Assembly (NCBI RefSeq): GCF_963921235.1 | Contig: NC_086097.1 | Coordinates: 372,001-436,000, forward strand | DNA from: Mobula hypostoma | Lineage: Eukaryota | Length of the DNA stretch: 64,000 nucleotides | Direction: 5' to 3' | Shown: positions 3,881-37,979 of the stretch, in pieces | Numbering within the stretch: the stretch's first letter is position 1 | Layout of the letters: each line of letters opens with the position of its first letter | Translations under genes and position numbers: made by a program | The notes under the pieces: model-generated | Database searches by the model: none | The model's input: only the letters and a program-made list of their open reading frames with translations | Told to the model about the DNA's origin: nothing

Positions 3881-5560
3881 TTACAGATAGATAGATACAT
3901 TATTGATGCCAAAGGAAATTACAATGCCACAGTAGCATTCTAAGTGCACAGATTTACAATTATTAGAAGAGAAATAAGGAAGAGTAAACAGAAAGGGAGC
4001 CAATGCAGTCCCCAGTGCTGCTTATAGCCATATCTGACACACAGCCCTGAAGCTGCACAAACTGTGGTATGCAGGATTCAATGGAAGTGCCTACCTGCAT
4101 TGATCAGAGCTTTTTCCCCAGCAATGAGGGCTGTGTGGTATTGAAGGCATTTGAGAAATTTAAAAAAAAGATCCTCACAGTGCTGCCCCGCTTATCCAAA
4201 TGGGAGTAGGCTCTGTTCAGCAGGTAGATGACAGTATCATCAACCCCAGTGTGCTCTTTATAGGCAAGACTTCAAGGGATGGAGGGCTGATCTGACCAGG
4301 GGTTGGAACTGAGCCAGGACCAGCCTCTCTAGGGTAATTATGATGTATGAGGTTCGGGCCACTGGACAGTAGTCATTCAAGGGTTTGCCCTTCTTGGGTA
4401 CTGGGACCATACATGATGTTTTCCACACAGTCGGGACCCTTTCCAGACTGAGACTCAGAGTAAAAATGTGCTGGAGAACTTCACGCAGCCGCTCAATACA
4501 CTCCATCAGGACTTTGGGATTCACACCATCTGGCTCCAATGCTTTGCCATGTCTGAGTTTCTTCAGAGCCTTTCTCACCTGCTCAGTAGTGAAAATGAGT
4601 CTCTGTGGACTTGGGAGTTGGAAGGTGAGAGCTGGGGGAGGTGAAAGTAGCATTTGGGATGTAGAGGTGTGGATGGTTGGTGCAAGGCAAGGAGGGGATG
4701 TAGACAATGGTGTTCATGTGCTGAACTGGATGAGGGAGGAGAAGAGGCATTGTACTGAGGGAGCATTGAGTGCCTCGGCACCTGAACTGGTGTGCTGAGG
4801 GGGTGTGAACAGGAGGGCAGATGTCAAACCTGTAGAAGAATTGGTTGACCTTATTAGCCCACTCATGGCGGCATTACGACGCTCTACAGCTAGGCTGATT
4901 GAAGCCCGTGGTGTTCTTCACGCCTCTCCACACCTCCTGTATGCTACTCTGCTCAAGCTTGTCCTCCAGCTCTCTCCTGTATTCCTCCTTAGCCACCTTG
5001 ATCTTCTCCTTTAGCTCCCTCTGCACGTTTCAATTCCTTCCTGCTTCCTGATCTAAAGGCTCTCTTTTTGTGATTCAAAAGAGCCCTTAGATCACTGGTG
5101 GCCCATGTTTTGTTGTTGGGGAAGCAACGAACAGTCCTTGATGGTATTACAGTGTCCACACAGAAGTTGATGTAGCCAATGATGCAATCAGTAAGCCCGT
5201 TAATGTCCTCCCCATATGGTTCACAAAGCACATTCCAGTTAGTAACCTCAAAGCAGCTCTTCAAGGCCTCAATGGCCTCTAGAGACCATTTCTTTACTAT
5301 CACAGTGGTAGCAGGCTGTTGCTGTACTTTGGGCTTATACAAGAGCATGAGCTGAACCAGGTTGTGATCTGATCTTCCAAGTGGGGTGTTTTATTTTTTC
5401 TTGTATAACACTTGACAAACTGATTGAAGGTGGTTAGGATTGTCAAGGCAGAAACATGGTTGAAGTCTCCCGATACTGCAATGAACGTATCGGGAAGGCA
5501 GAATGTAGACAACGAGCAACATGGCATGGCTGAACTCAGAGTAGATAAAACTGGCGCAAA
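3881..5560 (-). mobile_element. Rex1/Babar-like LINE fragment with (TATC)n tail
   Basis: ORFs 4258-4707 (PDGV...WKTSCMVPVPKK...NDYCPVA), 4989-5348 and 5300-5527 (GDFNH). gatagatagatac tail at about 3886. Confidence 0.8.
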
Positions 5561-5584
5561 CTCACAGCAACTAGTTCAATTTAA

Positions 5585-6390
5585 AAACACAAGCACGAGG
5601 AAATCTGCAGATGCTGGAAATTCAAGCAACACACACAAAATGCTGGTGGAACGCAACAGAACAGGCAGCATCTATAGGAAGAGGTACAGTCGATGTTTCG
5701 GGCCGAGACCCCTCGTCAGGACGAACTGAAAGAAGAGATAGTAAGAGATTTGAAAGTAGGAGGGGGAGGGGATGATCCGAAATGATAGGAGAAGACAGGA
5801 GGGGGAGGGATGGAGCTAAGAGCTGGAAAATTAATTGGCAAAAGGGATACAAGGCTGGAGAAGGGAGAGGATCATGGGATGGGAGGCCTAGGGAGAAAGA
5901 AAGGGGGAGGGGAGCACCAGAGGAAGATATAGTGAGAGGGACAGAGGGAGAAAAAAGAGAGAGAAAGAAAGGGGGGTTAAATAAATAAATAAGGGATGGG
6001 GTAAGAAGGGGAGGAGAAGCATTAACAGAAGTTACAGAAGTCAATGTTCATGCCATTTGGTTGGAGGCTACCCAGATGGAATATAAGGTGTTGTTCCTCC
6101 AGTCTGGGTGTGGCTTCATCTTGACAGCAGAGGAGGCTGTGGATGGACGTATCAGAATGGGAATGGGACGTGGAATTAAAATGTGTGACCACTGGGAGAT
6201 CCTGCTTTCTCGGGCGGACAAAGCGTAGGTGTTCAGTGAAACGGTCTCTCAGTCTGCGTTGGGTCTCGCCAATATATAGAAGGCCGCATCGGGAGCACCG
6301 AATGCAATATATCACACCAGCCGACTCACAGGTGAAGTGTTGCCTCACCTGGAAGGACTGTCTGGAGCCCTGAATGGTGGTGAGGGAGGC
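5585..6390 (-). mobile_element. Penelope-like (Neptune-type) 3' fragment: GIY-YIG endonuclease plus pLTR
   Basis: ORF 6022-6480 contains FTCESAGVIYCIRCSRCGLLYIGETQRRLRDRFTEH. Same terminus as the 25076 element. Confidence 0.9.
5688..5723 (-). ncRNA. Minimal hammerhead ribozyme motif (stem III variant)
   Basis: Minus strand reads cgtc-CTGACGA-ggggtctcggccc-GAAA-catc-gact. Confidence 0.7.
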
Positions 6391-6579
6391 TTCCTGAATC
6401 AAACTCTTGATTAAATAGATCAGAGAAGAGTTGAGTAAGAGTCTTGTGTGCCTTTGCTTCTCTGAGAGACAAAGATGCATCTAATCATAAGTAGCATGTA
6501 GAGAAGTGTGAACTTGTATGTGAATTGATCTTTAGAAATACGCATTATTTAATTAGTTGTTGCTTTTGCTTCCTTACAG

Positions 6580-6640
6580 ATCCAGATGGCCCTGCCCAGT
6601 ATGTACGACATGGAGATGTAGTCAAGCTTGAACACAAAGA
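6580..6640 (+). CDS. POMT2: POMT2 internal exon, 61 bp
   Basis: ccttacag|AT...AAAGA|gtaagt. Encodes DPDGPAQYVRHGDVVKLEHK(E); phases are consistent with both neighbours. Confidence 0.95.
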
Positions 6641-6674
6641 GTAAGTTTTAAAGATGGGTTCTTTAACATGTAAT

Positions 6675-7797
6675 GTCACAGCTATATACGACCCGAGTTA
6701 GACCCCGCTTGTGGTACTGTGTTCAGTTCTGGTCACCTCACTACAAGAAGGATATGGATACTATAGTCATAGTCATACTTTATTGATCCCGAGGGAAATT
6801 GGTTTTCGTTACAGTTGCACCATAAATAATTAAATAGTAATAAAACCATAAATAATTAAATAGTAATATATAAATTATGCCAGGAAATAAGTCCATGACC
6901 AGCCTATTGGCTCAGGGTACCTGACCCTCCAAGGGAGGAGTTGTAAAGTTTGATGGCCACAGGCAGGAATGACTTCCTATGACGCTCTGTTTTGCATCTC
7001 GGTGGAATGAGTTTCTGGCTGAATGTACTCCTGTGCCCAGCCAGTACATTATGTAGTGGATAGGAGACATTGTCCAAGATGGCATGCAACTTGGACAGCA
7101 TCCTCTTTTCAGACACCACCGTGAGAGAGTCCAGTTCCATCCCCACAACATCACTGACCTTACGAATGAGCTTGTTGATTCTGTTGGTGTCTGCTACCCT
7201 CAGCCTGCTGCCCCAGCATACAACAGCAAACATGATAGCACTGGCCATCACAGACTCGTAGAACATTCTCAGCATCGTCCGACAGATGTTAAAGGACCTC
7301 AGTCCTTTAGACTGAGAGAATGCAGAGGAGATTTACAAGGATGTTGCCTGGATCGGAGAGGTTGCCTTATGAGAATAGGTTGAGTGAACTTGGCCTTTTC
7401 TCCTTGGAGCGACAGAGGATGAAAGGTGACCTGATAGAGGTGTAAAAGATGATGAGAGGCATTGATCATGTGAATAGCCAGAGGCTTTTTCCCAGGGCTG
7501 AAATGGCTATCATGAAGGGGCATAGTTTTAAAGTGCTTGGAAGTAGGTACAGGGAGGATGTCAGAGGTAAGTTTCTCACACAGAGAGTGATGGGTGCGCG
7601 GAATGCACTGTAAGTGACGGTGGTGGAGGTCGATGCAATAGGGTCTTTTAGGAGACTCTTAGGTAGGTACATGAAGCTTAGAAAAATAGAGGGCTATGCG
7701 GTAGAGAAATTCTAGACAGTTTCTAGAGTAGTTTACATGATTGGCACAACTTTGTGGGCTGAAGGGCCTGTAATGTGCTGTAGGTTTCTATGTTCTA
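6675..7797 (+). mobile_element. CR1 3' fragment interrupted by a Rex-like insertion
   Basis: CR1 RT C-terminal sequence stops at about 6763 and resumes at about 7311. ttctatg tail near 7786-7797. Confidence 0.8.
6764..7304 (-). mobile_element. Rex1/Babar-like LINE 3' end, (TATGAC)n tail family
   Basis: ORF 6904-7275 (MFYESVMASAIMFAVVCWG...SFLPVAIKLYN), AATAAA plus tatgac repeats. Nearly identical to copies at 19955 and 60286. Confidence 0.88.
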
Positions 7798-7859
7798 TTT
7801 CTTCTTCTAATATTAGTGATTCATCCTTACAGGCTGACATTTGATTTTATCTTTGCCAG

Positions 7860-7938
7860 GACATCACGGAATATGCACAGTCACCAGCACGAAGCACCTC
7901 TGACTAAGAAGCATTTCCAGGTCACAGGATATGGAATA
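7860..7938 (+). CDS. POMT2: POMT2 internal exon, 79 bp
   Basis: ttgccag|G...GGAATA|gtaagc. Encodes (E)[26 protein letters not shown]. Confidence 0.97.
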
Positions 7939-7965
7939 GTAAGCATCAGTTTAGAGGTATTTCTT

Positions 7966-8245
7966 TTTATTTATTTAGACATACAGTGCCGAACAGGCCC
8001 TTCCTGGCTTACTGAGCCGCACTGCTCAGCAACCCACTGAATTAACCCCAGGACAATTTACAAATGATCAATTAATCTGCTTACTTGTACATCTTTGGAC
8101 TGTGGGAGAAAGCTGGTGTACCCGGACGAAATCCACACATTCAAGGGGAGGAACATAGAAAGCTCCTTACAGACTGCATTGGAATAGATCTCCGAATTCT
8201 AATGCCCTTAGGTGTAATTGCTTCACGCTAACCATTATGCTACAA
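7966..8245 (-). mobile_element. tRNA-derived V-SINE (HE1-like)
   Basis: The minus strand starts with a box A-like tagcataatgg, has a V-domain-like core (ttctcccacagtccaaagatgtac...ttaattg) and ends in a CR1-type 3' end (gggcctgttc). Confidence 0.65.
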
Positions 8246-8439
8246 TGACAGCTGAAGATTGTGTGAAGATTCTTTTTTGGCAGATCATGGAGTGCCTTTA
8301 AAGGAACCCTTGGGTTTCCATGACTTCTCTATGTCGAACCTGGGAGTAGCTCAGTAATAATGTGCGCAGCTTATTGTGGTGCCTAAGCAGGAAAGGCTGC
8401 TTCTGAGCTGGAAAGGACTCTGGTATATTACAGAGTTTT

Positions 8440-10490
8440 AGGAGCAGGGGGAAGTATTGGAAGATCGGTGATTATTGGTGTTCTGCCGGGGTCTGTACTG
8501 GGACCTCTGCTGTTTGTCATGTATATAATTGACCTGGATGTCATAGTCATAGTCATACTTTATTGATCCCAGGATGTTGTGGATAACGTAGATGACTGCA
8601 CAGAATACAGTGGGATATAGATCAGTTGCAATTATGGGTGGGGATAATGGCATAAAGTGAGGACATCGATTTAGGCCATTCAGCCCACCAAGTCTGCTCC
8701 GCCATTTCATCATGGCTGATACCGGATCCCATTCAACCCATACACCTGCCCTCTCAACATATCCATCAATGCCCCGACCAATCAGGAATCCATCAACTTC
8801 CGCTTTGAATATACCCACGGATTTGGCCTGCACCACAACATTTCACAGATTCGCCACGCTTTGGCTGAAAAAAATTCTTCTTTACTTCTGTTCTAAGAGG
8901 TCATCCCTCAGTTTTGAGGTTGTGCCATCTATTTCTGGATATCCCCACCAGAGGAAACATCATCTCCACAGCCACCTTATCCTGTCCTTTCAACATCGGG
9001 AGGTTTCAATGAGATCCCACGCATTTTTCTAAATTCCAGTGAGTACAGGCCCAGAGCTGCCAAACACTCCTTATATGTTAACCCCTTCATTCCTGGAATC
9101 ATGGCAGATGGAATTTAACTTAGCCAAATGTGAAGTGTTGCACCTTGGTAGATCAAATGTAAAGAGACAGTACACTGTTAGAGGCAAGACCCTTAAAAGT
9201 TTTGATGAGTAGAGGGATCTTGAGATCCAAGTTCATAGCTCCTTGAAAATGGCAATGTAGGTTGATAGGGTCGTTAAGAAGGCATATGTATGCTTGCATT
9301 TATTAGTTGAGACATTGAGCTCAAAAGTCAGGAAGTTAAGTTGCAGCTTTATAAAACTCTACTGAGGTGCATCTGGAGTAGTGCATTGTGGATGGATAGA
9401 TAGACATACTTTATTGATCCCAAGGGAAATTGGGTTTCGTTACAGTTGCACCAACTAAGAATAGAGTATAAATATAGCAATATAAAACCATAAATAATTA
9501 AGTAATAATATGTAAATTATGCCAGATGGAAATAAGCCCAGGACCAGCCTATTGGCTCAGGATGTCTGACCCTCCAAGGGAGGAGTTGTAAAGTTTGATA
9601 GCCACAGGCAGGAATGACTTCCTATGACGCTCAGTGTTGCACCTTGGTGGAATGAGTCTCTGGCTGAATGTGCCCAGCCAGTACATTATGTAGTGGATGG
9701 GAGACATTGTCCAAGATGGCAAGATGGAAGGATGTCAAGGCTTTGGGAGTGGACAGAAGAGCTTTATCAGGATTCCACCTGGATTAGATAGCATTTGCAA
9801 AAATGGGAGGTTGGACAAACTTGAATTGTTTTCTCTGGAGCGCAGACTCTGAGGGGAGATCTGATAGAAGTTTATAAGATTGAGAGGCATAGATAAAGTA
9901 GACAGATAAGACCATAAGACGAGGGAGCAGAAGTTGGCCATTCGGCCCATCGAGTCTGCTCCGCCATTTTATCATGAGCTGATCCATTCTCCCATTTAGT
10001 CCCACTCCCCCGCCTTCTCACCATAACCTTTGATGCCCTGGCTACTCAGATACCTATCAATCTCTGCCTTAAATACACCCAATGACTTGGCCTCCACTGC
10101 TGCCCGTGGCAACAAATTCCATAGATTCACCACCTTCTGACTAAAAAAATTTCTTCGCATTTCTGTTCTGAATGGTATCTTTTTTTCTGGGTTGATATAT
10201 AAGTGCATGCATTTAAGATGAGAGGGGGTAATTTTAAAGGAGGTGTGAAAGACAATTTTTTTCACACAGAGTAGTCGGTGCCTTGGGTTACCGTGATGGT
10301 GGAGAGGCAGGTATGTTTGAGACTTTTAGGAGATGTTTAGATGGGTTCATGAATGTGAATAAAATGGAGGGATATGGATATTGTCAAGAAAGGATTAATT
10401 TAACAGGGGATTTCATTACTGATTTATTTGGCTTGGCTGAGCATTGCGGGCTGAAGGGCTTGTTCCTGCGTTGTACTGTTCCACATTCTA
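8440..10490 (+). mobile_element. Old CR1 RT fragment with four nested insertions
   Basis: Host CR1 RT motifs are interrupted by a 30-bp Rex tail (8542-8571), a minus CR1 3' end (about 8653-9100, TSD atggca), a Rex 3' end (about 9393-9722) and a minus CR1 3' end (about 9906-10175). Confidence 0.75.
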
Positions 10491-18344: not shown

Positions 18345-19144
18345 TAGGGTTAAACTCACATCAACATGTCTTTTACAGCTAGGGTTGCCAACTTTCTCAC
18401 TCCCAAATAAGGGACAAAAGTAGCAGTCAATTCCTGACGAAGGGTCCCGGCCCGAAACATCGACTGTACCTCTTCCTATAGATGCTCCCTGACCTCCTGC
18501 GTTCACCAGCATTTTTTGTGTGTGTTATGGTCATAGTCATAGTCATACTTTATTAATCCCGGGGGAAATTGGTTTTCGTTACAGCTGCTCCATAAATAAT
18601 AACTAGTAATAGAACCATAAATAGTTAAATAGTAATATGTAAATTATGCCAGTTGACGAGACTCTTATGTTTACCCCGAGAAAAAGTACCATGACCATGA
18701 AGCCTTGTGCGGGCACCTGTGTGCATGTGCGTGACGTTCGCATGTGTGACGTGTGCATGCGCGTATGTACCGATTTTTTTTCCCACAAATTGTTTTTGGC
18801 TTAATCTTCCCGACTACACTGTACATTCATTATTTCAACTTTATATAGGCTGTGTATTTATCATATCATTAATGCTTTTACTACATGTTAGTTATTTTAG
18901 GTTTTATGTGTTATTTGGTATGATTTGGTAGGTTATTTTATGGGTCTGGGAACGCTCAAAATTTTTTCCCATATAAATTAATGGTAATTGCTTCTTCGCT
19001 TTGAGCCATATCGGCACGAAAGGTTTCATAGGAACGCTCTACCTTAGTGGGGGAAATACACGACAAGGGCAGTCCCGTATGGGACAAACCAATTTAGCCC
19101 TGTATACGGGATGACCGGCAAATACAGGACTGTTAGCAACCCTA
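18345..19144. mobile_element. Non-autonomous hAT DNA transposon (inner)
   Basis: Ends tagggtt / aacccta. 8-bp TSD tgttcaag at 18337-18344 and 19145-19152. A longer TIR copy tagggttgccaac at 18380 matches gttagcaacccta. Confidence 0.85.
18432..18466 (+). ncRNA. Hammerhead motif at the 5' edge of a ~95-bp Penelope fragment
   Basis: tc-CTGACGA-agggtcccggccc-GAAA-catc-gactg. Stem I is mostly lost by truncation. Confidence 0.6.
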
Positions 19145-22117: not shown

Positions 22118-22269
22118 AATGGCACAGGGGATGCGAATGATTTCTGGAGAATTGAGGTGATTGGGGGACAGAATGGGGACCTGATTAAAGTCCTCAGGAG
22201 TAAAATTCGATTAATCCACGTGGCGACTGGCTGTGTTCTGTACTCTTCTGGGAAGTCATTGCCCAAGTG
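22118..22269 (+). CDS. POMT2: POMT2 internal exon, 152 bp
   Basis: tttacag|AAT...AAGTG|gtgagt. Encodes [50 protein letters not shown](W). Confidence 0.97.
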
Positions 22270-25173
22270 GTGAGTTTATTATTGGCTGATTAAAATAAGA
22301 GATTCAGCCCACTGGCTGATATCTGAAAAACATATGTGGGTGATGCTTGATATACGCACACTCACGAAGAAAAGCTGCTTGCTATACCTTTCAGAAAAGA
22401 TTGAAGGAGCAATCGTCCATTTTCCTATTTTAATTTTGGTTGTTTGAGTTCGATCACAATGAAGCCATAGAAGCCTTTGAACCCAATTTCCAATTAGTTC
22501 TTCAGTGGGAAAATGTTGTTATTCCTGCACCTAACCCGTCTTCACAGATATTAGAACAGTACAAGTGTTGTGCCGACCCATAAACCCTGCCTCCCATATA
22601 ACCCCCCACCTTAAATTCCTCCATGTACCTGTCTGGTAGTCTCTTAAACTTCACTAGTGTATCTGCCTCCACCACTGACTCAGGCAGTGCATTCCACGCA
22701 ACAACCACTCTCTTGAGTAAAACACTTCCTCTAATATCCCCCTTGAACTTCCCACCCGTTACCTTAAAGCCATGTCCTCTTGTAATAAGCAGTGGTGCCC
22801 TGGGGAAGAGGGGCTGGCTATCCACTCTTATCTATTCCTCTTATTATCTTGTACACCTCTATCATGTCTCCTCTCATCCTCCTTCTCTCCAAGGAGTAAA
22901 GCCCTAGCTCCCTTAATCTCTGATCATAATGCATACTCTCTAAACCAGGCAGCATCCTGGTAAATCTCCTCTGTACCCTTTCCAATACTTCCACATCCTT
23001 CCTATAGTGAGGCGACCAGAACTGGACACAGTACTCCAAGTGTGGCCTAACCAGAGTTTTATAGAGCTGCATCGTTACATCGCGACTCTTAAACTCTATC
23101 CCTCGACTTATGAAAGCTAACAACCCATAAGCTTTCTTAACTACCCTATCCACCTGTCAGGCAACTTTCAGGGATCTGTGGACATGTACTCCGAGATCCC
23201 TCTGCTCCTCCACATGACCAAGTATCCTGCCATTTACTTTGTACTCTGCCTTGGAGTTTGTCCTTCTAAAGTGTACCACCTCACACTTCTCCAGGTTGAA
23301 TCTATCTACCACTTCTCAGCCCACTTCTGCATCCTATCAATGTCTCTATGCAATCTTTGACAATCCTCTACACTATCCACAACACCAGCAACCTTTGTGT
23401 CATTTGCAAACTTGCCAACCCACCCTTCTACCCCCACATCCAGGTCGTTAATAAAAATCATGAAAAGTCGAGGTCCCAGAACAGATCCTTGTGGGACACC
23501 ACTAGTCACAACCCTCCAATCTGAATGTATTCCCTCCACCACGACCCTCGCCTTCTGCAGGCAAGCCAATTCTGAATCCACCTGGCCAAGCTTCCCTGGA
23601 TCCCATGCCTTCTGACTTTCTGAATAAGCCTACTGTGTGGAACCTTGTCAAATGCCTTACTAAAATCCATATAGATCACATCCACTGCACTACCCTCATC
23701 TGTATGCCTGGTCACCTCCTCAAAAAACTCTATCAGGGTTGTTAGACATGATCTGCCCTTCACAAAGCCATGCTGACTGTCCCTGATCAGACTATGGTTC
23801 TCTAAATGCCCATAGATCCTATCTCTAAGAATCTTTTCCAACAGCTTTCCCACCACAGACGTAAGGCTCACTGGTCTATAATTACCCGGACTATCCCTAC
23901 TACCTTTTTTGAACAAGGGGACAACATTCGCCTCCCTCCAATCCAACGGTACCATTCCCATGCACCACGAGGACATAAAGATCCTAGCCAGAGGCTCAGC
24001 AATGTCTTCCCTCGCCTCGTGGAGCAGCCTGGGGAATATTCCATCAGGCCCAGGGGACTTACCCGTCCTAATGTATTTTAACAACTCCAACACCTCCTCT
24101 CCCTTAATATATTTTTTTTAATTTTATTTTTATTTGGATAAGGAATTCACAAATATGTACTTTTTTCACACATATAACCTTTTCCATTTTTTTATATGTA
24201 TAAAACTATAATTATTTATACATTCTTAAGTATACATACAAAAGAAAATTAGACACTTAAATAGATAATTATGTACTGTGGTAATTCTAATCTATTAGGC
24301 TAAGTAATGGTATTAGTTGTTAAGAAAAATGGTAATAATAGTTTCCATATTACTCTCCTGGACCATTTCCACTGGTCCAAAATGTTGTATGTAAGCCTAT
24401 GTAACAACCATTGTAGGTGTTTATATCCTAATTTGTTCATGCTTGCTCCTGCCCGCAGACATAATTATCCAATCCCTATGTACTTATTTACTTAATTTTT
24501 CCATTTTTTATCCCTTTCCCAAATCTTTCCCTTTACTTGTGTTAATTCTCTATTTTCCAAAAGAAAACAAAAAAAAAGACATTTAGACTAGGGGTGCTTA
24601 CGTTAGCAATATGACTGTGTTGATGAGAAGAGCAGTATAAATCATTAGGAGAGTCATCTGAAGTCTGCTCGCATTGGGGTTATATATTCAATCCATTTAT
24701 TCCAGATTTGATAAAATTTTTCTTTTTGAATTCTCAGGGAGTAAGTCAACTTTTCCATTTTAAATATTTCCAAGATAATTTCGTGCCAATCTTCTAATGT
24801 AGATGGTATTGGATTTAGCCACTTTCTAGTGACTGATTTCTTACTTGCCGCTAAGAGGGCCTGCAGCAACTTTATATCTTCCTTCTGTTCAAGAAACAAT
24901 ACATGCCCCAAATAGAGCGTCTCAAAGTTCAGAGGTATCTGGGACCTAAGTACCTTAACTAATGTTCTAGGAATACCTTCCCAATATAGACTTAATTTAG
25001 GGCAATCCCAGAAAATATGAAAATGATTTGCCTCCTTGGAGCCACACCTTCTCCAACGCATCACGTTTGTATCTTAAACAACAGGAATTCTGCAGATGCT
25101 GGAAATTCAAGCAACATACATCAAAGTTGCTGGTGAATGCAGCAGGCCAAGCAGCATCTATAGGAAGAGGTGC

Positions 25174-25209
25174 AGTCGACGTTTCAGGCCGAGACCCTTC
25201 GTCAAGACT
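25174..25209 (-). ncRNA. Minimal hammerhead ribozyme motif (C3U variant)
   Basis: Minus strand reads agtc-TTGACGA-agggtctcggcct-GAAA-cgtc-gact. Confidence 0.75.
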
Positions 25210-28200
25210 AACTGAAGGAAGAGTGAATAAAGGATTTGAAAGTTGGAGGGGGAGGGGGAGATCCAAAATGATAGGAGAAGACAGGAGGGGGAGGGATAGA
25301 GCCGAGAGCTGGACAGGTGATAGGCAAAAGGGGATACGAGAGGATCATGGGACAGGAGGTCCGGGAAGAAAGACAAGGGGCGGGGGGTTGACCCAGAGGA
25401 TGGGCAAGAGGTATATTCAGAGGGACAGAGGGAGAAAAAGGAGAGTGAGAGAAAGAATGTGTGCATAAAAATGAGTAACAGATGGGGTACGAGGGGGAAG
25501 TGGGGCCTTAGTGGAAGTTAGAGAAGTCGATGTTCATGCCATCAGGTTGGAGGCTACCCAGACGGAATATAAGGTGTTGTTCCTCCAACCTGAGTGTGGC
25601 TTCATCTCCACAGTAGAGGAGGCCGTGGACAGACATGTCAGAATGGGAATGAGATGTGGAATTAAAATGTGTGGCCACTGGGAGATCCTGCTTTCTCTGG
25701 CGGACAGAGCGTAGATGTTCAGCAAAGCGGTCTCCCAGTCTGCGTCGGGTCTCACCAATATATAAGAGGCCACATCGGGAGCACCGGACGCAGTATATCA
25801 CCCCAGTCGACTCACAGGTGAAGTGATGCCTCACCTGGAAGGACTGTTTGGGGCCCTGAATGGTGGTAAGGGAGGAAGTGTAAGGGCATGTGTAGCACTT
25901 GTTCCGCTTACACGGATAAGTACCAGGAGGGAGATCAGTGGGGAGGGATGGGGGGGACGAATGGACAAGGGAGTTGTGTAGGGAGCGATCCCTGCGGAAT
26001 GCAAGGGGGGGAGGGAAAGATGTGCTTAGTGGTGGGATCCCGCTGGAGGTGGCGGAAGTTACGGAGAATAATATGTTGGACCCGGAGGCTGGTGGGGTGG
26101 TAGGTGAGGACCAGGGGAACCCTATTCTTAGTGGGGTGGCGGGAGGATGGAGTGAGAGCAGATGTACGTGAAATGGGGGAGATGCGTTTAAGAGCAGAGT
26201 TGATAGTGGAGGAAGGGAAGCCCCTTTCTTTAAAAAAAGAAGACATCTCCCTCGTCCTAGAATGAAAAGCCTCATCCTGAGAGCAGGTGCGGCGGAGACG
26301 GAGGAATTGCGAGAAGGGGATGGCGTTTTTGCAAGAGACGGGGTGAGAAGAGGAATAGTCCAGATAGCTGTGAGAGTCAGTGGGCTTATAGTAGACATCA
26401 GTGGATAAGCTGTCTCCAGAGACAGAGACAGAAAGATCTAGAAAGGGGAGGGAGGTGTCGGAAATGGACCAGGTAAACTTGAGGGCAGGGTGAAAGTTGG
26501 AGGCAAAGTTAATAAAGTCAACGAGTTCTGCATGCGTGCAGGAAGCAGCGCCAATGCAGTCGTCGATGTAGCGAGGGAAAAGTGGGGGACAGATACCAGA
26601 ATAGGCACGGAACATAGATTGTTCCACAAACCCAACAAAAATGCAGGCATAGCTAGGACCCATACGGGTGCCCATAGCTACACCTTTAGTTTGGAGGAAG
26701 TGGGAGGAGCCAAAGGAGAAATTATTAAGAGTAAGGACTAATTCCGCTAGACGGAACAGAGTGGTGGTAGAGGGGAACTGATTAGGTCAGGAATCCAAAA
26801 AGAAGCGTAGAGCTTTTAGACCTTCCTGATGGGGGATGGAAGTATATTAAGGACTGGACATCCATGGTGAAAATAAAGCGGTGGGGGCCAGGGAACTTAA
26901 AATCATCAAAAAGTTTAAGAGCGTGAGAAGTGTCACGAACATAGGTTGGAAGGGATTGAACAAGGGGTGATAAAACAGTGTCGAGGTATGCAGAAATGAG
27001 TTCGGTGGGGCAGGAGCAAGCTGAGACAATAGGTCGGCCAAGACAGGCAGGTTTGTGGATCTTGGGTAGGAGGTAGAAACGGGAAGTGTGGGGTGTGGGA
27101 ACTATAAGGTTGGTAGCAGTGGATGGGAGATCCCCTGAGCAGATAAAGTCGGTGATGGTGTGGGAGACAATGGCCTGGTGCTCCTTAGTGGGGTCACGAT
27201 CGAGGGGTAAATAAGAGGAGGTATCCGCGAGTTGTCGCTGTGCCTCGGCAAGGTAGAGGTCAGTACGCCAGACTACAACAGCACCCCCCTTATCGGCGGG
27301 TTTAATAATAAGGTTAGGATTAGTGCGGAGGGAGTGGAGAGCAGAGCGTTCCGAAGGAGTGAGGTTGGAATGGGGACAAGGTGCGGTGAAGTCGAGACGG
27401 TTGATGTCCCGTCGGCAGTTAGCAATAAAGAGATCCAGAGCAGGCAGAAGACCAGAGCGGGGTGTCCATGAAGAAGAGGAGGGTTGAAGACGGGAGAAGG
27501 GGTCATCGGTAGGGGTGGAAGAGTCCTTGCCGAAGAAGTAGGCTCGGAGACGGAGACGGCGGAAGAAAAGTTCCGCATCGTGGCGAACACGGGACTCGCT
27601 GAGGTGTGGGCGAAGGGGGACAAACGTGAGGCCCTTACTGAGAACAGAGCGTTCTGCCTCCGACAGTTGAAGGTCGGAGGGGATGGTAAAGGCCCGGCAC
27701 GGATGACAGCTGGGATCAGAGGAGGGAGGGGGGAGGGGGGAGGCTGGTGGTGTCAGTGGAGAGGGGAGGGTTGGGGTGAGAGGAAGATGGAGCCTCTGAG
27801 GGCCCAGGAGTTGACGGTGGGATCTGAGGAAGACTCTGCATTCCGCAGGGATCGCTCCCTACACAACTCCCTTGTCCATTCGTCCCCCCCATCCCTCCCC
27901 ACTGATCTCCCTCCTGGCACTTATCCGTGTAAGCGGAACAAGTGCTACGCATGCCCTTACACTTGCTCCCTTACCACCATTCAGGGCCCCAAACAGTCCT
28001 TCCAGGTGAGGCATCACTTCACCTGTGAGTTGACTGGGGTGATATACTGCGTCCGGTGCTCCCGATGTGGCCTTTTATATATTGGCGAGACCCGACGCAG
28101 ACTGGGAGACCGCTTTGCTGAACATCTACGCTCTGTCCGCCAGAGAAAGCAGGATCTCCCAGTGGCCACACATTTTAATTCCACATCCCATTCCCATTCT

Positions 28201-28626
28201 GACATGTCTATCCACGGCCTCCTCTACTGTAGAGATGAAGTCACACTCAGGTTGGAGGAACAACACCTTATATTCCGTCTGGGTAGCCTCCAATCTGATG
28301 GCATGAACATCAACTTCTCTAACTTCCGCTAAGGCCCCACTTCCCCCTCGTACCCCATCTGTTACTCATTTTTATGCACACATTCTTTCTCTCACTCTCC
28401 TTTTTCTCCCTCTGTCCCTCTGAATATACCTCTTGCCCATCCTCTGGGTCACCCCCCCCTTGTCTTTCTTCCCCGACCTCCTGTCCCATGATCCTCTCGT
28501 ATCCCCTTTTGCCTATCACCTGTCCAGCTCTTGGCTCTATCCCTCCCCCTCCTGTCTTCTCCTATCATTTTGGATCTCCCCCTCCCCCTCCTACTTTAAA
28601 ATCCCTTACTCACTCTTCCTTCAGTT

Positions 28627-28662
28627 AGTCCTGACGAAGGGTCTCGGCCTGAAACGTCGACT
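28627..28662 (+). ncRNA. Minimal type I hammerhead ribozyme motif, intact core
   Basis: agtc-CTGACGA-agg gtctcgg cct-GAAA-cGTC-gact. Stem I is agtc/gact, stem II is agg/cct, the palindrome ACGT replaces stem III, and the cleavage triplet is GUC (28656-28658). Confidence 0.85.
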
Positions 28663-31600
28663 GCACCTCTTCCTACAGATGCTGCTTGGCCTGCTGCGTT
28701 CACCAGCAACTTTGATGTATGTTGCTTGAATTTCCAGCATCTGCAGAATTCCTGTTGTTTTCTGAAAGTACCAACCCCACTTCTTTCTCCCACTTCTCTT
28801 TAATATACAGTGTATTTACATTTTTAGCATGGGAGAGTGCATTATATACTCGAGAAACTGATTTACCAGGTATTGAACTGCAAGCTGAATTCAGAATCTT
28901 GAAAAATTCTAATTCTACTGTTGATAGGTCTGTATATCTACAACTCTGGTTAACATAGTTTCGTACTTGAAGGTACCTGAAAAAGTCATTATGTTCTTGG
29001 CCATGTTTGTCCTGCAGGATTTGGAAACTTTGTAATACTCTTTTATCTATAAATGAGAGGTAGGTTGTAAGACCTTTCTTTATCCATAGCTCAAATCTTT
29101 TATCTCCTCTGTTGGGAAGGAATTCGGTATCATATGCACACCATCTAAAAAGTTTTAACATGTTATTAATTCCACATGAATTAACCACCTTCTGCCATAC
29201 TTTTAATGTAAGATTTATCCAACTGTTTTTAAATTTTTCCAACTGGGCCATCAATCCTTTATCAGCTATTGAGGCCTGTAGAGGAAAACTGTCAACTAAT
29301 CCAAATTCTATTTCCTTCCATCTAGCCTTATATTCCCTATTACACCAATATAACAGAGGGGTTATCTGTGAGGCATAAAAATAATTTCTCAGGCAAGGAA
29401 GAACCATACTCCTCCTTCCTTCCCTAACTGTAAGGTGTTATGTTGAATTCTAGGTTTCTTTCCTTGCCAAATGAAGCGGGAAATCCAATTGTCCCATTCC
29501 CTGAATTGATTATCATCCACCTCTACCGGTAAAGTATGGAAAAGATACAATAACCGAGGAAGAATATTCATTTTTATAGTATTTATCCTTGAATTTAAAC
29601 TTAAAAAGGGGATAAGATTCCATCTATGCATATCTGCTTTTATCTCTGAGATTAATGGCCCATAATTTACCTGTGACAGTGTTGAAAGATCCTTCGGCAG
29701 GGTTATTCCTAAATATTTTAATGATTTAGCTTCCCACTTAAGATCGTATGTATCCTGCAATTTTTTGGATGGTGTATAATTTAGGGACATAAGCTGCGTT
29801 TTCTTTACATTTATTTTATAACCTGATATTTTCCCAAAGTCATCCAACAGTGTAAACGATCCTATAAATGATTTTTCTGGTTCACTCAGATAGACCAAAA
29901 CATCATCTGCGAATAACGCCACTTTCTGTTCAATCCCTGCCACCTTGATACCTTTTACGATTTCGCTCTGTCTTATTAGTTGGGCAAGCAGTTCAATATA
30001 TAGCGCAAAAAGGAGAGGAGAAATTGGGCATCCCTGTCTAGTGCCTCTCTCTAAGATGAAGGAGTCAGAGAGGTCCCCATTTATCTTAATTCGGGCTGTA
30101 GGGCTGTCATATAGAGTCTGAATTACTTTAATAAACTTTTCTTGAAAGCCGAATCTTCCTAACACTCTGTATAGGAATGCCCAACTAACCGAATCAAAAG
30201 CTTTCTCAACGTCCAATCCTACTACCATTGTCTCTGTCTCGTTCTTATTAACCTGTTCTAATATGTGCAGAGTTCTCCTTATGTTGTCCTGTGTTTGTCT
30301 TTGTTGAATAAATCCAGTCTGGTCTAAGTGGATTAGGCCAGGTAAAAGCTTTTCCAATCTACATGCTAATATAGATGTAAATAGTTTGTAATCTAAATTA
30401 AGAACACTAATTGGCCGATAATTGCCACATTCCAGTTTATCTTTACCCTCTTTAGGAATAACTGAAATAATCGCTTCTCTCCAGGAAGGTGGAGTTTCTC
30501 CTCTCTGCAAGATCCAATTAAAGGTGTTAAGTAGTAATGGGGCTAACTGTGTCTTCAGGGACTTAAACCACTTTGAGGTAAACCCATCAGAACCCGGGGA
30601 CTTTCCAGCCTTTAACCTAGAGATGGCCACGTTCAGTTCTTTGACAGTTACTGGTTCTAATAAACTTTCATTTTGTAAATCTGTAAGTTTAGGTAGATCT
30701 AAAAAATTCGATACACTGTCTATATAGGGCTCATTGGGGGCCCGGGGTTGGGAGTACAGCTCTCGATAATATGTTTCAAAACTCTCTTGAATTTTCCCTC
30801 TTGTACTCTCCACAAGCTTTGTCTTTGGATTCTTTATTTTATGAATTGTATTGTCTGCTTGTTGTTTTCGTAATTTATATGCTAATAATCTAGCTGATTT
30901 ACCTCCTACTTCATAATTCTTTTGTCTCAGGTAAAGAAAATTTCTTTGAGTTTCCAACGTATAAATATCATCATTTCACTTTGCAATTTCCTAATTTCCT
31001 GTTTACGATTTGAATTACTTTTGTTGCTATCTCCAACTTGAAGTTGTTTTAATTTTCCTCGAAGGTCTGCTAATTTTTGTGCATTGATTTTTTTCATGTG
31101 AGTGGTAATGGAAATAATTTTCCCTCTCAGTGCAGCTTTCAATGTATCCCATAAGATCACTGGTGATGTTTCTCCCGTGTCATTAAGGTCCAGATATTCT
31201 TTGATTTCTCCCCTTAATCTCTCCATTACTTTCGGGTTATTGAGTATATGAGAGTTTAGCCTCCATAGTGTTTTCCTCATTTTCCTTTCCAGGATTAGAG
31301 ACATAGAGACTGGGCTATGATCCGACAGATCAGTTGTTGCAATATTACAGTTTTTTATCCTGAGTCTATCTGTATTAAAGATAAAGAAATAGTCTATCCT
31401 TGAATAGGCTGAATGAGGGAAAGAGTAATGTGTATAATCTTTACTAGTAGGGTGTAATTCCCTCTAGACATCTATAATTCCCAACTCCCTCATCAATGAA
31501 TTCATTTTCCGAGTCAGAGATTTATTCTGAGTAACTATTCTTGAAGAATCTAATACAGGATTTAATCTAATATTAAAATCCCCTCCACAAATTACTACCC

Positions 31601-37887: not shown

Positions 37888-37979
37888 GGGATGGGAGCAG
37901 GTTGAAGTCAGCTGTAGTCCTTACCTTAAAGAAACCCCCAACTCGTTGTGGAACACTGAGGATCATATTAATGCCAAAT
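37888..37979 (+). CDS. POMT2: POMT2 internal exon, 92 bp
   Basis: tctgcag|G...AAAT|gtaagt. Encodes (W)[30 protein letters not shown]. Confidence 0.97.

Follow-up and report, generated by a model that had tools for sequence, protein, structure and literature searches.

Does a hammerhead motif that lies on the sense strand of an intron of the ray Mobula hypostoma act on the pre-mRNA of the host gene, POMT2, or is it the inert remnant of a mobile element? This question arose from a stretch of 64,000 nucleotides (NCBI RefSeq assembly GCF_963921235.1, contig NC_086097.1, here C1, positions 372,001 to 436,000 of the forward strand; hereafter the window), in which a first-pass annotation made from the letters alone had singled out positions 28627-28662. 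The reading that we favor, at a probability of roughly 0.85, is that the motif is the minimal hammerhead (min-HHR) module of the 3' tail of a Penelope-like element (PLE), that it reached the POMT2 intron through a single retrotransposition, and that it is essentially inert in the pre-mRNA. This kind of motif is already known as the PLE min-HHR (Cervera and De la Pena 2014, PMC4209133). Our literature search found no papers on this family in cartilaginous fishes; a preprint survey of retrozymes (10.64898/2026.07.22.740005) includes a single chondrichthyan genome.

The motif and its place in POMT2

In whole-genome Pfam searches, the window was flanked on either side by plus-strand exons for PMT and PMT_4TMC; a POMT2 relative (P0005) used as tblastn query aligned collinearly to the same strand in 20 segments, each an exon or part of one, between C1:260,684 and 467,078. 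Two Mobula species have a POMT2 that matches the MIR-domain exon at 22118-22270 at 100% identity, and the named relatives of this exon are all POMT2. The element that carries the motif lies between 22270 and 37889, inside a 15.6-kb intron, and the plus-strand exons that flank it bear out the earlier placement of the motif on the sense strand of a POMT2 intron. As a separate observation, the last 33 residues of the POMT2 isoform P0005 (736-768) match 19 places on both strands of C1:250001-476000, and the terminal exon of this predicted isoform therefore looks repeat-derived. The features of the window that are used below are as follows.

5692..5719, minus strand: antisense copy of the motif, core intact, ACAU, G-C at 10.1-11.1
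18434..18461, plus strand: sense copy in the preceding intron, core intact, ACAU (non-palindromic)
22118..22270, plus strand: POMT2 exon upstream of the insertion, residues 467-517 of P0005 (tblastn, 100% identity)
25077..27836, minus strand (antisense to POMT2): main PLE copy (ORF list, GIY-YIG match, relatives of the reverse transcriptase, RT)
25174..25209, minus strand: opposite-arm hammerhead with C3 changed to U (TTGACGA), 1 mismatch (arm comparison, C vs T at position 28631)
27837..28760, plus strand: inverted 5'-truncated PLE copy, GIY-YIG coding end and 3' untranslated tail with the hammerhead (inverted repeat, ORF 27472-28332)
28627..28662, plus strand: minimal type I hammerhead motif (sequence read, pairing letters checked, pattern match with 0 mismatches)
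28639..28650, plus strand: helix II in the family-supported register, GGGU/GCCU with loop CUCG, 28639-28642 pairing with 28647-28650 and A28638 unpaired
37889..37978, plus strand: next POMT2 exon, residues 518-547 of P0005 (tblastn)

The motif runs in the order helix I 5' strand, CUGACGA, unpaired A, helix II, GAAA, C-G, U16.1, C17, and helix I 3' strand. Helix I comprises 4 bp, AGUC (28627-28630) with GACU (28659-28662), and U28626.G28663 is a possible extra pair that would bring it to 5 bp; it is thus open and of the length (about 4-6 bp) that defines type I PLE min-HHRs. The core letters are CUGACGA at 28631-28637, A28638, and GAAA at 28651-28654, after which come C28655, G28656, U28657, and C28658, giving ACGU at 28654-28657 (A15.1 included) and then C17; the cut site predicted from the sequence falls after C17, between 28658 and 28659. 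All conserved core positions (C3 U4 G5 A6 N7 G8 A9, G12 A13 A14, A15.1-U16.1, and H17) are present with 0 mismatches. Helix III is absent beyond the self-complementary ACGU, a palindromic 15.2-16.2 that would allow a dimer. The earlier description of helix I, CUGACGA, GAAA, ACGU, C17, and a predicted cut at 28658/28659 was thus confirmed letter by letter, and the core of the opposite arm likewise reads UUGACGA, as had been stated, through a C3-to-U change (25178-25205, minus strand).

The one part of this anatomy that needed revision is helix II, which had been drawn as AGG/CCU (3 bp with a 7-nt loop). While this register is possible in the window copy, the family favors GGGU/GCCY with an unpaired A; among 26 distinct family copies, 99% of cells are paired in the latter register vs 85.9%, with 10 A-C mismatches, in the former (helix I, 82.3%). 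The 10.1-11.1 pair is G.U in the window copy and in 15 of the 26 distinct copies and G-C in 10 of 26; G-C is found in older copies, and in the young subfamily the pair is G.U, or A-U if the other register is used. A search with hammerhead models, which the first-pass annotation had proposed as a check, gave no match: Rfam at gathering thresholds was negative over the whole window, and at E <= 10 no hammerhead family (Hammerhead_1, HH9, HH10, type II, or type III) was matched in the 501 nt or 71 nt around the motif, as expected of a motif without helix III. The permissive search gave four weak matches (UnaL2, PrrB/RsmZ, MIR5148, and SNORD65; E 0.5-9), all at chance level.

The carrier element

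The motif is part of a large inverted repeat (25077-28760) with arms at 25077-26003 (927 nt) and 27837-28760 (924 nt), which are 97-98% alike and differ by 23 substitutions, 18 of them transitions, over 923 aligned positions. The reading frame of the main copy is split in three (26782-27858, 25935-26786, and 25508-26437, minus strand), is broken at least twice, and lacks a start codon where it begins; this copy is thus 5'-truncated and broken, and its protein therefore cannot be made. The plus-strand arm is more severely 5'-truncated than the main copy, whose 5' end it abuts, and has its stop codon at about 28330. The hammerhead follows about 330 nt past this stop and 102 nt before the end of the element at 28760, beyond which many assembled contigs of other runs (of uncertain kind) diverge.

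With regard to coding content, Pfam found GIY-YIG at the C-terminal end of both arms (E 5.9e-4 on the plus strand and 9.4e-4 on the minus strand, both below Pfam's own cut-off), and the middle ORF piece has a YIDD polymerase motif. At E <= 1e-10, 191 relatives of the RT piece were found (best E 7e-155); among the 120 of these that were listed, which come from sharks, corals, molluscs, and echinoderms, RVT_1 is found in 86 and GIY-YIG in 22. A Pfam search of the RT pieces, even at E <= 10, and a PDB sequence search returned nothing. Judging from its family relatives, the YIDD motif, and one further lead, the middle piece is a predicted reverse transcriptase. An RT with GIY-YIG after it is what defines the endonuclease-bearing PLEs, and by this architecture the carrier is classed as a canonical endonuclease-bearing PLE with its frame broken here. 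As to pseudo-LTRs, the inverted arms represent the inverted partner, and no direct upstream pseudo-LTR is present. Anatomy and carrier element together support the earlier assignment of the motif to the minimal type I hammerheads of PLEs.

According to a study of PLEs (PMC8557442), an inverted 5'-truncated copy that adjoins the main copy is typical of PLE insertions; since such a partner is routine, the separate inversion event that the first-pass annotation had invoked to place the motif is not needed. A single retrotransposition event would instead have produced both a frame-broken 5'-truncated copy on the minus strand and an adjoining, inverted, shorter 5'-truncated copy on the plus strand, with a LINE-like repeat inside the intron as insertion target, and the plus-strand arm would thereby present the min-HHR module of the 3' tail (pseudo-LTR region) in the sense of the POMT2 pre-mRNA. 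Any catalytic role would belong to the retroelement's own RNA, for which the literature proposes processing of multimeric PLE transcripts, either as a dimer via the ACGU palindrome or with the element's protein.

Three further observations concern the element and its surroundings. First, an older reading frame of LINE-like character is split by the PLE unit and resumes on its far side (minus strand, 28700-29437 and 24654-25073); it was labeled LINE by eye, Pfam having returned no match for it. Second, base pairing of the two arms would give the POMT2 pre-mRNA a nearly perfect double-stranded hairpin of about 920 bp, a plausible substrate for RNA editing or small-RNA pathways. Third, the 102 nt past the predicted cut (28659-28760) fold as a long imperfect hairpin (-24.6 kcal/mol, z = -1.1) and match the UnaL2 LINE 3' element at chance level (E 4.8); by analogy with the Anolis element, this segment may hold the start site of reverse transcription.

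A uniform hammerhead family in the ray genome

A search of the 3.48-Gb genome with the pattern CTGANGA-N13-GAAANNTH (28 places) gave 158,103 core-intact matches, as compared to 1,588 for the reversed pattern used as control; when up to 2 mismatches are allowed, 103,657 matches are found to the 31-mer that surrounds the core. Among 100 listed genomic rows, counted by eye, 35 are identical to the window copy over 28 nt, 72 keep ACGT, and 28 have lost the palindrome; by eye, 25 of these 28 read ACAT or ATGT, the products of CpG transitions. Such losses are expected in a CpG-poor genome (observed/expected CpG in the window, 0.33), and the loss of the palindrome in other copies is neutral decay. 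Patterns with other lengths of helix II exceeded their controls by little, with 17,638 matches vs 12,424 in the control for 8-12 nt and 18,389 vs 13,222 for 14-18 nt; in the listed rows, examined by eye, the family-like matches were mostly indel variants of the same family, and these other lengths yielded no well-populated second hammerhead family that could serve for cross-family covariation.

Covariation of stems I and II across copies, the lack of which the first-pass annotation had named as one half of what would refute its reading, was not seen in stems that are near-invariant and hence of low power. In a set of 30 copies (26 distinct) that represent the first core-pattern matches on C1 and in which helix I is readable, the 26 distinct copies showed 0-1 two-sided changes in helices I and II, no more than shuffles and in both registers alike; helix I varies by disruptive single changes only, and helix II by G-C/G.U and U.G/U-A. 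Covariation is missing because the family hardly varies, not because its variation opposes the fold, and the structural argument draws on conservation and on published families without support from covariation.

The hammerhead also stands out as a unit within the tail. Of 30 matches to the tail in an unbiased 226 kb (C1:250001-476000), 12 have their first position within 28627-28646; of 73 matches to the arm, 17 have it within 28625-28636. Coverage of the tail rises from about 20 copies upstream to about 50 over the hammerhead and the next 70 nt, in a sample that is partly core-selected. The hundred-fold excess of intact cores, the start sites in the 226 kb, and the coverage profile support the view that the hammerhead is a selected module. 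In many short copies of the family, the shared sequence starts where the hammerhead does and extends only about 70 nt beyond it; these copies could represent a non-autonomous (retrozyme-like or SINE-like) family or other PLE subfamilies. Short diverging inverted tail pairs (fold-back copies), which have the layout of the window element with very short arms, are also common, e.g., C1:109236(-)/109307(+), 301107(-)/301198(+), 354225(-)/354346(+), 444645(-)/444756(+), and 470495(-)/470610(+).

In most respects, this family resembles the metazoan PLE min-HHRs described in PMC4209133, including type I topology with a helix I of 4-5 bp, no helix III other than the palindromic 15.2-16.2 pair (ACGU), a place in a repeat downstream of an RT and GIY-YIG frame, and massive dispersal in which truncated single motifs predominate and paired motifs lie on opposite strands. 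It differs in that helix II comprises 4 bp with two wobble pairs as compared to 6-8 bp in several published families, in that the young ray subfamily has U rather than C at 11.1 where G10.1-C11.1 is usual, and in that the ray family is very uniform while the published families are highly variable. It is also more than ten times as large, with about 158,000 core-intact copies vs the 4,000-9,000 reported for coelacanth and Xenopus (PMC4209133). A study of animal non-LTR retrozymes (bioRxiv 10.64898/2026.07.22.740005) describes non-autonomous hammerhead repeats derived from PLE pseudo-LTRs, which, like the short ray copies, are non-coding repeats that share the PLE hammerhead module; by contrast, retrozymes are defined there by tandem arrays, and the ray copies seen are dispersed singles or inverted pairs.

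Copies of the motif are found throughout POMT2 as well. The four homologous copies in the window start at 5692 (minus), 18434 (plus), 25178 (minus), and 28631 (plus), all in copies of one repeat. Across the gene, seven core-intact motifs are present, of which three are antisense and four are sense, the latter in four different introns (C1:321180, 366539, 390434, and 400631, the last being the window motif). By BLAST and pairwise alignment, 8 sense and 12 antisense copies in the POMT2 span include the hammerhead-homologous part, and their cores are intact in 4 of 8 and 3 of 12, respectively, a very small sample. The pattern search of the window found no second sense copy in the motif's own intron; the nearest sense copy, which belongs to the preceding intron, is 10 kb upstream and no longer palindromic.

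Fate in the POMT2 pre-mRNA and other readings

Several properties of the motif suggest that it would have essentially no effect in the POMT2 pre-mRNA, namely the missing helix III, the lack of a sense partner in the intron, a competing fold, and a complementary arm. As an isolated 47-mer, it has a minimum-energy fold of -12.2 kcal/mol vs -7.7 kcal/mol for the hammerhead-compatible fold, and in the preferred hairpin the core is buried through pairing of its GACG with the CGUC of the cut site; the stability of the 61-mer does not exceed that of shuffled sequence (z = -0.18). The opposite arm, a near-perfect complement that is transcribed 3.4 kb earlier in the same pre-mRNA, forms a duplex with the 61-mer at -123.7 kcal/mol. 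Hammerheads fold rapidly on a local scale and might do so before the distant arm can pair; sequestration by that arm is thus not absolute, since local folding may win the kinetic race. The double hammerhead of a dimer is non-nested, and the ViennaRNA cofold minimum is a different pairing; trans-dimerization with the many other transcribed copies may occur. On these models, the motif is probably inert for POMT2.

The intactness of the motif can be explained by its age. The arms are 2.5% different, which corresponds to about 1.25% change per arm, and a 36-nt motif would stay untouched with a probability of about 0.64; its intactness thus needs no selection, and the sole arm difference inside the motif hit the opposite arm. 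We infer that the motif is intact because the insertion is young rather than through selection in the host. The claim that this motif is the best candidate for a functional RNA in the window did not survive, given that its 28-nt core recurs unchanged in 35 of 100 listed copies, that it is one of four sense copies in POMT2 with no sense partner in its intron, that the z-score is at the level of shuffled sequence, and that the opposite arm is complementary.

Published data on related hammerheads point in the same direction. When assayed as single motifs, PLE min-HHRs did not detectably cleave, and their dimers were of low activity (PMC4209133); the view of the first-pass annotation that they probably act as dimers agrees with the literature (PMC4209133, PMC6765202). 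As reported in PMC11167929, the hammerhead of the Anolis Poseidon element PAc, which like the window motif belongs to a vertebrate PLE and has stems I and II only, cleaved only when the element protein was added, and no RNA-seq reads described there ended at its site; unlike the window motif, it overlaps the start of the reading frame rather than following the stop codon and preceding the element end by about 100 nt. By analogy, the window motif would be expected to behave as the PAc hammerhead does, i.e., to show no cleavage without the element protein.

Among the alternatives, a role other than cleavage fares best, although we consider it unlikely. The motif might be conserved as a structure that the element protein recognizes near the start of reverse transcription, or as a passenger on PLEs. 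This would fit with reports that hammerhead core mutants left insertion of the Anolis PLE in vitro unaffected (PMC11167929) and that hammerhead-less PLE clades proliferate well, the authors themselves raising the possibility that HHRs "simply parasitize PLEs" (PMC8557442). It would also fit with the wide sharing of the hammerhead and the 70 nt downstream, in the partly core-selected sample, and with the clustering of start sites at its 5' edge in the unbiased 226 kb. Against it, at least 158,103 copies retain the catalytic core at each of its positions; retention at a hundred-fold over control is most simply explained by selection for catalysis in active elements, and cleavage by PLE hammerheads has been seen in vitro, as dimers or with protein (PMC4209133, PMC11167929).

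We regard it as very unlikely that the motif is a working intronic ribozyme that cuts the POMT2 pre-mRNA, whether alone, with protein in trans, or with another copy, and thereby affects POMT2 expression. The intron's sense strand does carry the core, helix I, palindromic ACGU, and C17 in intact form, and intronic hammerheads with conserved roles exist in amniotes (PMC6155905). Like the window motif, those of RECK and CTCL (Rfam HH9/HH10) are of type I and lie on the sense strand in an intron of a conserved gene, and they are thought to have descended from retroelement hammerheads (PMC6155905); they are single-copy, orthologous across classes, and endowed with loop-loop contacts and Rfam matches, whereas the window motif is a young repeat copy that matches no Rfam hammerhead model, and with 158,103 copies it is far from single-copy. 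A depletion of hammerhead-bearing retrozymes from Xenopus introns, reported in preprint 10.64898/2026.07.22.740005, hints at a cost of such motifs. Sense copies in POMT2 are, however, not poorer in intact cores than antisense copies in the very small sample given above, about a third of the listed genomic copies are identical to the window motif, POMT2 has three other core-intact sense copies, published single PLE min-HHRs did not cleave (PMC4209133), and the motif lacks helix III and a sense partner in its intron while a competing fold and the complementary arm oppose the active fold.

We thus retain the reading of an inert PLE tail module, which for POMT2 is probably of no consequence and a by-product of ordinary retroelement insertion. 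Of wider, if modest, interest is the family behind it, about 158,000 core-intact minimal hammerheads in one uniform family, far above the thousands reported for coelacanth or Xenopus. The ray genome is hence a good natural data set for asking whether selection removes intact sense-strand intronic hammerheads, and an answer would tell whether weak ribozymes of this kind ever act on host transcripts. A broader proposal, that sense intronic PLE hammerheads cut in vivo when the element protein or other transcribed copies are present, such that PLE bursts nick host pre-mRNAs genome-wide and impose a selectable cost on sense insertions, appears highly improbable; hammerheads of this kind number four in POMT2 and are of order 10^5 across the genome.

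Finally, chance resemblance to the hammerhead consensus, which might be suspected from the missing Rfam hammerhead match and from a window-only pattern search in which 3 mismatches gave 5 matches vs 4.7 expected, is rejected as next to impossible by the 158,103 exact-core matches in the genome vs 1,588 for the reversed pattern, by the homology of the four good window matches as copies of one repeat, and by the position of the motif at the place expected of a PLE hammerhead, downstream of the RT and GIY-YIG frame.

As a minor observation from the genome search, a repeat at C1:1324881(+), 1718145(-), and 8065132(+) has an intact core, a 6-bp helix II (AUGAGG/CCUCAU), and a non-palindromic helix III; this repeat may represent a second hammerhead family or a chance match inside another repeat.
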